From Catajapyx aquilonaris (taxonomy: Eukaryota), in contig KZ537965.1 in the NCBI GenBank assembly GCA_000934665.2, positions 124,001 to 188,000 of the forward strand: a DNA stretch of 64,000 bases, given 5' to 3'. The notes beneath the pieces were generated by a model. The model did not search any database, was not told the origin of the DNA, and saw only the letters and a list, made by a program, of their open reading frames with translations. This document shows, in pieces, positions 55,801 through 58,800 of this stretch; position 1 is the first letter of the stretch; the number at the start of each line of letters is the position of its first letter. Made by a program: the position numbers and the translations under genes.

Positions 55801-58800
55801 GGCCCAAAAATTTAAATGTGTAATTGAAATGATTTTTTTTGCGAATCTGCCAAGTTTGCGAAATTTGTTGGCTCCTTCAGAGGCTAGGAACTAATTTTAA
55901 AGCTATGTCCCAGCGAGGCGGAAATCGATCGTTTAACAATGCCAATAGTCTAATTTTAACACATGTCTATCTCCTTCATGCCCTCCTTCATGCTTCTTAT
56001 CCATATCTGGAAAAGGCTGCAACTCTGTATTATGTCAGTCAAGGCCAACTCACTTTTTGCACAGCTGCAGTTTCATTCACACTATAGTCTGCCTACACAT
56101 GAAGTTTACAACCTTGACAACTTGTTGTATGCAAATCCGATTTAAAACAATAATAATGAGGGTGTAACGCCAATATTATTATCATACGTCATATTACAAG
56201 TATAGGTACAAGTGCTCTGAAGTACCCCCCTTTCCCCCAAATTTAAAAAAAATGGAGAACAATATTTTAGCACTGACTAATGTACTGCGAGCTGATATGT
56301 ACAGTTGAATCCGGATATAACAGCCTCGGCTATAACAGACTTTAAAAGCGCGGGTCCTGCCATACTTCCATATATGGCCACTCCTGATATAACAGACTCA
56401 TTTTCACATCAACTCGGCTATAACATACCATTTTTTGGCCCCTTGGCAGGAAAATATTCTCTTTTTTAGTTGTAATTATTCAACTTCCTTTCCCACGCAG
56501 TAGGCGTAAAAGTGGCCTATATGCAAAGCAGATTAAAATATTGTGTGGGCAAAATTTGGCTAAAGCAGACTCGCCTTGAAGTATGTTACATCCGGATATC
56601 ATTAATGTATTAATTATTACATTAATTTTTTTATTAGTATGCCTAATTGAACCACCGTCCCAGCAGCTTATTTGCTTCATACTGACTGAGGCGATCGCTG
56701 TCGAAATATGTGGGCCGTCCATTTTTTTCGTATTTTTTATGTATGAAAGTACTGTACAGTAGACTACCCCCCCCCATTATGTTAATTAAAAATAAAAATT
56801 ACAATAATTGAACCATCGTCCTAGCTATCTTAAATCCATGCGGAGGCTATCTGACGAAATAAGTGGGCCGTCCACTTTTTTATATACTTTTTTTTAATGT
56901 ATAAAAAAGTACAGTAGGCGTCGGATTGGTTCCAAGCCCTGCCGGTAGATGGCAGCGTTCCCATCTTTGTCCCGATCGTTGTGGTCCTGGGCGTTCACCT
57001 CGCTGGAACAACCGCTCATCCGCCCCTTTCCGCCGTCCCTGCAACGCTTGCTGGCTGCCCCCTTCGTGTGCTGAGCAAAACCCCAGGGGCGGCCCACCCA
57101 GGCAGGGCAACGAACCGGGCCTCGTTGTGAACACATCCGATCCGAAAAAACCGAACCGGGCTCAGTTCGACTGTGTTGCCAACCCCCACATACCGTATAC
57201 TCAAGTGTTCGAATATCGCGGATACGGTAGGGGCAGTTAGGTCCTTGTTGCACCTTCCCCTGTTCGTCTTCTGCTGGGCGCATCCGCACCACTGACTGGT
57301 GAGGGGTACAGCAGCCGCCCCTCAGAATCCCAGGGATGGCCGTGGAAAGGGTGGGCTGAAATACCCAACACGACGAAGAGGGGGGAAAAAAAAATAATGA
57401 GGGGTCATGTGGTGCTGTTGGCAATACTGATCTGGGGGGTCATAGGTCAGGAGGAGGATGTGTTCGAAGATGAACCAGGTACTACATCAGATATTTTATT
57501 ATTAGAAGAAGAAGAAGAAAAGGTCAGGGCTTTAATATGTTACACAAAATTTGCAGTACCGAGCAAGCCGGTGAATGTGACGGTGCTGCAGGTGACGGAC
57601 AAGATCCTGGAGATGACCTGGGCAGAACCGGAGCAGCCAAACGGGGTCATACAGGGCTACAGGCTGTATTACATGCATAAGAATTTCACGGACGTCAAAT
57701 CCGTCCGGAATGCCCAGCCGCAGATGGAGTTCGTTCTAACCGGACTCGGTAAGTCACCGCATCGCACGTTATATGACCCAAGTAGCACAGTGACATCCGA
57801 CGGATATCGCACAGTGACATGCGAAGGGTATTGCACGGTGACATCCGACGGATATCGCACGGTGACATCCGACGGATATCGCACGGTGACATCCGACGGA
57901 TATCGCACGGTGACATCCGATGGGTATCGCACGGTGACATCCGATGGGTATCGCACAGTGATAGCCGACGGGTATCGCACTGTGACATCCAGTGGCGAGA
58001 ATCGGATATGTAGATATCCACTGGATGTCGCAGGGAGATTCATGCTACTCACTGGTTACTGACATTACAGAGCCGTACACCGAGTATAAAATCTGGCTGA
58101 AGGCGTTCACATGGAAGAACGAAGGGGAGTCGTCAGATCCCGTTGTGGTCCAGACGGATGTGCATGGTCCTACTCAGCCGTATATTCTCAACCTGACGTG
58201 CCAGTCGCATGATACGCTGTTTCTGCAGTGGCAAAGGCCATCCACTTTTTACAATTCGATTGATTACTACTACATATACTATCGGAGCGAGGACGCATGG
58301 GATTTCGAGGAGATACCGGTGGAAACGGCTTCGGATCGTATTGACCACATGGTAAGAATCGGTGGCGTATTTTTGCACCGTTAGTAGCTTCAACCGGATT
58401 CATTTGCAGATGTTCATACCCAACTTGACGGCCAACACCATGTACGAGGTCAAGGTTCGTGGGGCCACCCGGAGCCTGTTTCAGAAGAAGAAGATCCACA
58501 AGGGAGAGTTCTCCGAGGCCAGAAAAGTGATGGTGCAGCCCAACTGCGAGAAGATACAGTACATTTCGGTGCGGACAATGGATCACGAGTTCAGCGCAGG
58601 GATGATCGCCGGAATAGTCTGCGCATCGTTCGCACTTTTGCTGGCCATCATCGCATTCGTGCTATGGAGGTACAGCCTTCATTATTAATACAGCTGACAG
58701 GAACTACCGTATTTGACGGCATATAAGACGCACTTTTTTCCGCAAAAATATATGCGAAAATACAATACGAATTTATTTTCCTTCATGTTGTCGTCGTCAT

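Follow-up and report, generated by a model that had tools for sequence, protein, structure and literature searches.

A candidate internal first coding exon for a short, two-FN3 receptor form of Ptp99A in Catajapyx aquilonaris

The stretch of Catajapyx aquilonaris DNA analysed here (64,000 nucleotides, referred to as the window) carries a receptor tyrosine phosphatase gene of the Ptp99A type. The intron of this gene that ends at position 57556 contains an ATG followed by a hydrophobic reading frame and a GT dinucleotide. This raises the question of whether the segment is a first coding exon lying inside the gene and encoding a signal peptide of its own, from which a short receptor would be made beside the long one. 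The best matches over the entire coding region are proteins named Ptp99A or mosPTP-1. The closest proteins are the Ptp99A models of Timema, Diploptera, Cryptotermes and Ischnura (62-65% identity over HSPs), and no protein in the searched collections was more than about 65% identical to this gene. One homology match was labelled PTPRG or 'phosphatase gamma' by its source, and a word search among longer proteins returned one homologue only. The features on which the argument draws are as follows.

53887-54001, forward strand: last FN3 exon specific to the long form, 87% identical to residues 289-326 of Cryptotermes secundus isoform X4
56900-57396, forward strand: GC-rich, non-repeated block, a putative 5′UTR and/or core promoter of the short form as judged from composition
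57397-57478, forward strand: exon A, candidate first coding exon of the short isoform (sequence anatomy, signal-like ORF statistics, peptide comparison)
57479-57556, forward strand: predicted GT-AG intron of 78 nt between exon A and the shared FN3 exon (from the sequence)
57557-57748, forward strand: shared exon B, initial two thirds of the short form's membrane-distal FN3 (...FVLTGL; Pfam fn3, E 7.5e-08)
58071-58351, forward strand: shared exon C, end of FN3-1 and start of FN3-2 (Pfam fn3, E 9.6e-07)
58410-58669, forward strand: shared exon, end of FN3-2 and transmembrane helix (gene model)
59225-59511, forward strand: juxtamembrane exon and start of D1 (gene model)
59590-59804, forward strand: PTP domain D1 exon (Pfam Y_phosphatase, E 1.6e-24)
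62057-62182, forward strand: PTP domain D1 exon (gene model)
62239-62736, forward strand: D1 exon with the catalytic motif, and linker (Pfam Y_phosphatase, E 1e-37)
62796-63077, forward strand: PTP domain D2 exon (Pfam Y_phosphatase, E 1.6e-26)
63140-63411, forward strand: D2 exon (Pfam, E 5.7e-11)
63472-63607, forward strand: D2 exon (gene model)
63665-63910, forward strand: last coding exon, stop at 63908-63910 (gene model)

The short-form model comprises 12 exons from 57397 to 63910, with a coding sequence of 2877 nt and no internal stop. The initial annotation had described its product as an open protein of 958 aa with two FN3 domains, a transmembrane segment, D1 and D2. We reproduced both the length and the domain content, Pfam recognizing fn3 twice and Y_phosphatase on four exons. 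Together with the model, these matches give the Ptp99A-type architecture: an FN3 ectodomain, a single transmembrane helix and tandem PTP domains. D1 carries the active-site HCxxGxxR motif. In D2 the position of the catalytic Cys is taken by Asp, within IIVMDRYGG, which straddles exons 63140-63411 and 63472-63607, and the same D2 motif is present in orthologues. The combination of an HCxxGxxR motif in D1 with a Cys-to-Asp change in D2 is what we take to be the defining trait of Ptp99A-type phosphatases. The model includes one GC-AG intron (62737-62795), directly 3′ of exon 62239-62736. A sequencing run of unknown kind (32 million letters) covers a share of 0.64 of 57160-58400, which has no bearing on expression. 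As a pointer only, the value is closer to what the three exons A, B and C would jointly yield (about 0.58-0.67 of 31-mers) than to the figure for B and C without A (about 0.34), and patchy DNA coverage would match it too.

The long form uses the same downstream exons. Exon 53887-54001 ends in G|GTGAGT, in phase 1, and joins the acceptor at 57557 to read MTDEG|VPSKP. Further FN3 exons of this form lie at 31693-31878 and about 48986-49294. No exons for its N-terminus (residues 1-163 of the Cryptotermes protein) were found in the window at relaxed thresholds; the long form begins beyond the 5′ end of the window.

Exon A had been placed by the initial annotation between an ATG at 57397 and a CAG|GT donor at 57479, ending in phase 1 and followed by a 78-nt intron and the acceptor at 57557; we re-derived these coordinates, which are correct to the base. 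The ATG (57397-57399) has an A at -3, in the context AATAATGA, and is the first in-frame ATG after an upstream in-frame stop whose last base is 57240. With 27 codons and one further base (G 57478), the exon measures 82 nt and closes in phase 1; the codon divided across 57478/57557, G|TA, encodes the V of VPSKP. Its donor, CAG|GTACTA at 57478/57479, agrees with the consensus at six of nine positions, without a G at +5, and donors of the same GTAC type are found in two constitutive introns of this gene (58669 and 63607). The acceptor, TTTGCAG|TAC at 57556/57557, is used both by the short-form model and by the long form. We also considered an alternative donor at 57520/57521 (AAG|GTCAGG, likewise in phase 1), which would leave an intron of 36 nt and was rejected.

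The peptide encoded by exon A has the features of a cleavable signal. Its n-region is MRGH (net charge +1), its hydrophobic core runs for 13 residues with no charged one among them (best 10-residue Kyte-Doolittle mean 2.96), and V and G occupy -3 and -1 of the predicted cleavage site VIG|QE. By rule-of-thumb criteria, namely a positive n-region, an unbroken core of 7-15 residues and small residues at -3 and -1, the peptide is predicted to consist of a 17-residue cleavable signal and a 10-residue acidic spacer.

To place exon A among its relatives we took a census of 133 Ptp99A-like proteins, 122 of which match exon B. In 45 of these 122, the counterpart of VPSKP occurs among the N-terminal 110 residues. 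Thirty-eight of the 45 begin with a Met and a hydrophobic run, followed by a short spacer, acidic or Thr-rich, that is joined directly to VPxKP; the 10-residue Kyte-Doolittle mean is at least 2.0 in 37 of them and 1.94 in the remaining one. The other seven have truncated or poor N-termini. Among long-type proteins, 70 of 77 have T[D/E/G]EG| before VPxKP, like the window exon at 53887-54001. RefSeq includes short forms from Schistocerca cancellata (X1), Anabrus simplex (X2) and Bacillus rossius (X2) and, among hymenopterans, from Belonocnema kinseyi (X3-5), Polistes canadensis (X5) and Ptiloglossa (X2-6); they are also present in models of fireflies, Leptinotarsa, Brassicogethes, Agrilus, Frankliniella and Menopon. 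Ten more, unnamed, come from Logan or JGI. Eight of these ten are ORFs of 914-1137 aa on contigs of 3.3-4.8 kb, and since the gene has 11 introns, these contigs probably represent spliced mRNAs. A signal exon equivalent to exon A, which the initial annotation had suggested looking for before VPSKP in Ptp99A orthologues, is thus found in many arthropods. The central proposal, an internal first coding exon whose own signal leads into a two-FN3 receptor, gains support from the 38 orthologues with the same junction residue and from a Daphnia-like gene of the same layout, as far as sequence comparison can tell.

The block upstream of exon A bears on where transcription of the short form would start. 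The 500 nt beginning at 56901 have a GC content of 0.58, the highest in the 64-kb window (mean 0.445, s.d. 0.049). Consensus matches comprise a single TATAAAA at 56900 and a single Inr, TCAGTT, at 57162, and a short uORF of seven codons lies out of frame at 57336. The block gave no Pfam match on either strand, no Rfam match and no repeat within the window; it thus corresponds to no known RNA gene and to no recognizable transposon protein. The promoter near 57160 and the roughly 7-kb unit proposed earlier are possible, the evidence being the GC-rich block with one Inr and one TATA match. Another arrangement, which we regard as possible but doubtful, would keep exon A as a real coding exon and put the start elsewhere, with one or more non-coding 5′UTR exons further upstream spliced to a 3′ site within 57241-57396 and a unit longer than about 7 kb. 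Pyrimidine-rich AG sites do indeed lie upstream of the ATG, 3′ of the in-frame stop, one of them following CCGCCCCTCAG near 57326, and the case for the adjacent promoter is made by base composition together with single TATA and Inr matches. However, a block that adjoins exon A and ranks first by GC among 500-nt stretches of the window is what would be expected of a 5′UTR or promoter. A start close to exon A is the arrangement that we follow below.

The 78 nt between exons A and B may be read as an intron or as coding sequence. The GC content falls from 0.52 in exon A to 0.29 in these 78 nt and returns to 0.56 in the next exon, and a branch-like TTAAT motif lies about 20 nt 5′ of the acceptor. 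The segment is in frame and without a stop, and its retention would add 26 residues. This much of the initial annotation's description stands, but it lends retention no statistical support: when 78-nt pieces are drawn at random from the neighbouring intron, 31% have no stop in that frame; multiplied by one third for a length divisible by three, this gives a chance of about 0.1, so that an open, in-frame intron of this length is unremarkable. If the 78 nt were kept, as the main or as a regulated retained-intron form, the first coding exon would run uninterrupted from 57397 to 57748 and the protein would have 984 aa with a 36-residue linker. We consider this unlikely. Apart from the open frame itself, it is favoured by hymenopteran short forms, whose spacers are about 26 residues longer than that of the spliced model, and by the Daphnia-like genomic ORF P0133, which is likewise open across its intron. 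The retained 26 residues, however, have no real similarity to the hymenopteran spacers; P0133 is subject to a selection effect, since an interrupted frame would have kept it from being found; and the equivalent intron is absent from P0007, a spliced transcript. The dip in GC within the 78 nt also argues against coding use, and the final 20 nt are needed as the long-form acceptor whatever the case. A broader version, to which we give a similarly slim chance, would make the signal exon, mini-intron and FN3 exon an ancient pancrustacean module common to this insect and a Daphnia-like crustacean, with the short phase-1 intron kept open and in frame as a regulated retained intron. If regulated retention did take place, there would be three ectodomain forms: the long one, the short one of 958 aa, and a short one of 984 aa with a 26-residue acidic/hydrophobic linker. 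The spliced, 958-aa form remains the preferred model.

Could exon A instead be an intronic ATG with a hydrophobic stretch and a fortuitous GT that was never an exon? Signal-like peptides do arise in the window, where, by crude criteria of our own, 15 of the 2213 ATGs on both strands open one, and a six-of-nine donor is weak. Three of the 15 have a phase-1 G|GTR donor within 55-200 nt; from these counts, chance would place about 0.005-0.02 such ORFs in the 200 nt preceding any one acceptor, a low figure for an ORF at this exact place and in this phase. The 38 orthologues, which share the architecture, the residue and the phase, also argue against a fortuitous ORF, as do the GC dip in the 78-nt intron and the GC-rich block upstream.

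Similarity at the peptide level bears on the same point. We aligned exon A by the Smith-Waterman method with 32 orthologue N-terminal segments (the 38 minus six same-species near-duplicates). The summed score was 707, against 495 ± 28 for whole-peptide shuffles, none of 500 reaching 707. With shuffles that preserve the n, h and acidic regions the expectation rose to 608 ± 42 and 5 of 500 reached 707. The peptide is short and compositionally biased. The best single pair was with Belonocnema (..GV.GQ.ED..E, score 45); the next, with a score of 43, involved a beetle-like protein from JGI that opens MGHVV. Two of the 32 pairs stood at or below 1/500 of region-preserving shuffles, and most single orthologues were unremarkable by this measure (P0248, 84/500; P0274, 88/500; P0240, 253/500). 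When the window's 20 signal-like ORFs that open with an ATG were ranked by similarity to orthologue N-termini, exon A came first, above all 19 others. In a HMMER search against representatives, the signal part (query residues 1-21) was aligned in none of the 150 matches listed; these matches are dominated by multi-FN3 giants and proved useful for single-exon genomic ORF fragments, including P0133. The alignments thus point weakly to a similarity that is measurable, modest and partly compositional. All in all, a chance ORF is a very improbable account of exon A. Still more improbable is a relic exon, homologous to the arthropod short-form first exon but no longer transcribed in this lineage: the donor is weak, but the exon has an undamaged ORF, hydrophobic core and GT, the right phase and an A at -3 of its ATG, where decay would be expected of an unused 82-nt exon.

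We therefore hold it highly likely, on comparative grounds, that 57397-57478 is the orthologue of an alternative first coding exon in the Ptp99A genes of many arthropods. The transcript would come from upstream of 57397, starting possibly within 56900-57396. Translation from the ATG at 57397 would produce the 17-residue signal peptide and direct the chain to the ER, where the signal would be cut probably after VIG. Removal of the 78-nt intron, through the predicted 57478/57557 junction, would join the 10-residue acidic spacer in phase 1 to the VPSKP exon. The product would be a type-I membrane receptor of 958 aa with two membrane-proximal FN3 domains, a transmembrane segment, an active D1 and a Cys-to-Asp D2. 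The long form would pass through the upstream FN3 exons and then splice from 54001 to the same acceptor.

For annotation, this means that at least two protein isoforms should be recorded for the locus, the long receptor and a 958-aa receptor with a different signal peptide. The two would have all signalling parts in common and differ in extracellular binding, a difference relevant to the deployment of this axon-guidance phosphatase in different cells. The short two-FN3 isoform type is already widely annotated in arthropods, and exon A is very probably real but ordinary; as predictions or assemblies of the isoform pair already exist for many insects and a crustacean, no new question is opened. 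In the portions of the literature accessible to our search, whose scope did not extend to the 1991 cloning papers, we met no account of Ptp99A ectodomain isoforms.

Among known systems, the vertebrate R5 receptor PTPs, PTPRG and PTPRZ, have tandem PTP domains with Asp in place of the catalytic Cys of D2, features shared by the window gene. They also carry a carbonic-anhydrase-like domain, and their ectodomain isoforms arise mainly via splicing; unlike them, the window exons show no such domain. In D. melanogaster, the classical Ptp99A cDNA encodes a receptor with few FN3 repeats, long isoforms having been annotated later, and the reference protein has a signal peptide and a unique segment joined to the equivalent VPSKP FN3. 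Two other dipterans, Topomyia yanbarensis (P0273) and Condylostylus longicornis (P0265), have a signal and a unique segment joined at VPS.P, but in these two flies the segment is 120-210 residues long, in contrast to 10 here.

The Daphnia-like genomic ORF P0133 has the exon layout seen here, with a signal peptide, about 38 in-frame residues and VPGKP. Its phase-1 intron is about 114 nt long against 78 nt here, both being open and in frame, and its signal peptide, from a crustacean lineage, is not alignable to exon A beyond composition. P0007, the spliced transcript, comes from a close relative of P0133 and shares 88% identity with a Daphnia pulex model. The short forms of beetles (Leptinotarsa decemlineata P0274, Brassicogethes aeneus P0248, Henosepilachna P0233, and P0227) open with M(R/M)(M)GH and a hydrophobic run. 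P0227, from JGI and named 'receptor-type tyrosine-protein phosphatase gamma', begins MGHVV where exon A has MRGHVV, and among P0227, P0248 and P0274 it is the only one unusual against region-preserving shuffles (1/500). The beetle spacers are Thr-rich and 15-35 residues long, compared with 10 here.

The Schistocerca and Belonocnema short forms offer a further parallel. Schistocerca cancellata isoform X1 (P0013, 946 aa) reads MNLSGAVLFCLFLAANSDEETSG|VPSQP, a signal and short spacer joined at the same V as in the window. This protein and Belonocnema kinseyi X3-X5 (P0027-P0029) have two fn3 and two Y_phosphatase domains by Pfam, as here, and the short forms of the two genera measure 946-1063 aa against 958 aa. 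They differ in the spacer, which has 6 residues in Schistocerca, about 36 in wasps and 10 here; overall identity to the window gene is only about 55%, and the similarity of the signal-exon peptide is weak. In this family, long isoforms have ...TDEG|VPxKP at the junction, as the long form of Catajapyx does.

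We checked the anatomy of exon A, the candidate signal-peptide first coding exon of a short Ptp99A form, base by base, and the description in the initial annotation proved correct throughout. As read from the sequence, the start codon at 57397 has A at -3, and no in-frame ATG was found between the upstream stop (ending at 57240) and this position. The exon is 82 nt long and ends in phase 1, because after 27 codons one base (G 57478) is left over before the GT at 57479. The acceptor, TTTGCAG/TAC at 57556/57557, lies 78 nt past this donor and opens exon B, the FN3 exon shared with the long form, and the V of VPSKP is encoded by a codon split G/TA across the junction. 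The donor, CAG/GTACTA, matches 6 of 9 consensus positions; constitutive donors of the same gene at 58669 and 63607 (GTACAG) are of the same GTAC type. Translation bore out the earlier statement that the 78-nt intron is in frame and stop-free; its retention would add 26 residues. The chance of such an in-frame and open state is about 0.31 x 1/3, and it is not unusual. Between exon A (GC content 0.52) and exon B (0.56) the 78 nt drop to 0.29, as an intron would be expected to.

The downstream model was rebuilt with splice sites picked by best fit to five orthologues, giving the following coding exons.

Coding exons of the predicted short form (window positions, strand, basis)
57397-57478, forward strand: exon A, signal-peptide candidate, sequence reading
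57557-57748, forward strand: exon B, Pfam fn3 and orthologue fit
58071-58351, forward strand: exon C, Pfam fn3 and orthologue fit
58410-58669, forward strand: exon, orthologue fit
59225-59511, forward strand: exon, orthologue fit
59590-59804, forward strand: exon, orthologue fit
62057-62182, forward strand: exon, orthologue fit
62239-62736, forward strand: exon, orthologue fit
62796-63077, forward strand: exon, orthologue fit
63140-63411, forward strand: exon, orthologue fit
63472-63607, forward strand: exon, orthologue fit
63665-63910, forward strand: exon, orthologue fit

The 2877-nt CDS contains no internal stops and encodes 958 aa, exactly the length claimed earlier for an open protein. 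The model includes the TM helix and the D1 active site, and Pfam finds Y_phosphatase in four exons that together span two domains; D2 carries Asp instead of the catalytic Cys (within 63400-63480), likewise in the orthologues compared. Every intron but one is GT-AG: the one that separates the D1-linker exon from the first D2 exon (62737-62795) is GC-AG (CAG/GCAAGT), and no GT donor there gives an orthologue-like junction in its place. A 45-nt cassette microexon flanked by AG/GT (59992-60036) lies inside the D1 intron 59805-62056; its 15 residues (ETLKRQPKLASQCLE) also occur between VERGR and RKCDMYW in a Timema model and in Schistocerca isoform X1, and its inclusion would lengthen the short form to 973 aa. 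The intron after exon B is filled by a minisatellite (57785-57990; 24-nt unit, 8.6 copies, 90% matches), through which the exon B frame stays open to 58062 (ORF 57241-58062) with SDGYRTVT repeats, out of frame with exon C.

An equivalent signal-peptide start before VPSKP was sought among orthologues and is present in 38 proteins. We collected 133 Ptp99A-like proteins, 122 of which match exon B. The VPSKP equivalent lies deep in the protein in 77 of the 122, directly preceded by T[D/E/G]EG in 70 (long type), and within the first 110 residues in 45. Among these 45, 38 open with Met followed by a hydrophobic run, from which a short spacer, acidic or rich in Thr/Ser, leads straight into VPxKP; the other 7 have truncated or implausible N-termini. 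Short-type examples are Schistocerca cancellata isoform X1 (MNLSGAVLFCLFLAANSDEETSG/VPSQP), Belonocnema kinseyi X3-X5 (LLLVGVHGQTEDTTEQ, then VPSKP) and Leptinotarsa (MRMGHAFVYVFVAVCGIIAQ); others are Ampulex, Polistes canadensis X5, Ptiloglossa X2-X6 and braconid wasps, and further examples come from Anabrus, Gryllus, Bacillus rossius, fireflies, Brassicogethes, Agrilus, Frankliniella and Menopon. In flies (Topomyia, Condylostylus and two Logan proteins) the junction is identical and is preceded by a longer unique segment, which fits the arrangement that the initial annotation gives for D. melanogaster Ptp99A. Eight of the ten unnamed Logan or JGI short-type proteins are 914-1137-aa ORFs on 3.3-4.8 kb contigs and, since the gene has eleven introns, probably represent spliced mRNAs. 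The closest protein to the window's gene in the searched collections has ~65% identity.

The exon A peptide was scored against 32 orthologue N-terminal segments, six same-species near-duplicates having been dropped. The summed local score was 707; whole-peptide shuffles gave 495±28 (0 of 500 reaching 707) and shuffles within the n, h and acidic regions 608±42 (5 of 500). Single pairs were mostly unremarkable (e.g. equalled by 84, 88 and 253 of 500 shuffles), the best being Belonocnema (45; 0 of 500) and, at 43 (1 of 500), a JGI protein that begins MGHVV. With the window's 20 signal-like ATG ORFs as natural decoys, exon A ranked first both in summed score (707 versus 648 for the next) and in best pair (45 versus 33). 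On our reading, the similarity of this short, compositionally biased peptide offers weak but real support to homology with the orthologue N-termini. Of the 2213 ATGs on the two strands of the window, 15 begin a signal-like peptide by crude criteria (22 open codons; a 10-residue stretch free of charged residues and averaging 2.5 or more on the Kyte-Doolittle scale; n-region not net acidic), and 3 of the 15, exon A among them, have a phase-1 G/GTR donor within 55-200 nt; ~0.005-0.02 such starts are therefore expected in the 200 nt preceding a particular acceptor.

Further FN3 exons of the long form were mapped, with a 1126-aa Logan homologue and a Cryptotermes isoform, at 31693-31878, ~48986-49294 and 53887-54001. 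The last ends G/GTGAGT in phase 1 and, joined to acceptor 57557, gives MTDEG/VPSKP. No exon for the N-terminus of long-form orthologues (residues 1-163, with the signal peptide, an Ig-like portion and the first FN3 start) was found in the window, so the long transcript would begin beyond the window's 5′ end; with its 5′ exons seemingly outside (none in 1-31692), one intron would exceed 31 kb. The long-form-specific FN3 exons, compared over 31693-31878, 49091-49294 and 53887-54000, have 80-87% identity to the Cryptotermes protein, and the two membrane-proximal ones common to both forms (57557-58351) only ~53-56%. An ATCGAT-rich 31-nt tandem repeat (30738-30861) lies ~0.8 kb upstream of FN3 exon 31693.

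No other 500-nt stretch of the window is as rich in GC as the one from 56901, adjoining ATG 57397 (0.58; window mean 0.445, s.d. 0.049). This block has no Pfam match on either strand, no Rfam match and no repeat within the window. It has a single TATAAAA at 56900, a single Inr match (TCAGTT) at 57162, and an out-of-frame uORF of 7 codons (MAVERVG; 57336-57359) that precedes the candidate start at 57397 by 61 nt. A putative 5′ UTR or promoter fits these features, which prove nothing, and pyrimidine-rich AG sites before ATG 57397 leave room for upstream non-coding exons.

Sequence comparison makes it very probable that exon A is orthologous to the first coding exon of the short isoform, a type already known from many arthropod Ptp99A genes; in the part of the Ptp99A literature accessible to our search, we found no account of ectodomain isoforms. 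There is nothing unusual in the proposed mechanism: through an alternative 5′ exon the short form would gain another signal peptide and would be made as a receptor without the distal ectodomain. A Daphnia-like genomic ORF (P0133) runs uninterrupted from a signal peptide through ~38 in-frame residues to VPGKP, and P0007, its spliced counterpart from a close relative, has 88% identity to a Daphnia pulex model. Together they give a crustacean layout of signal exon, phase-1 intron and FN3 exon in which the two exons are ~114 nt apart. The window has the same layout, with 78 nt between them.
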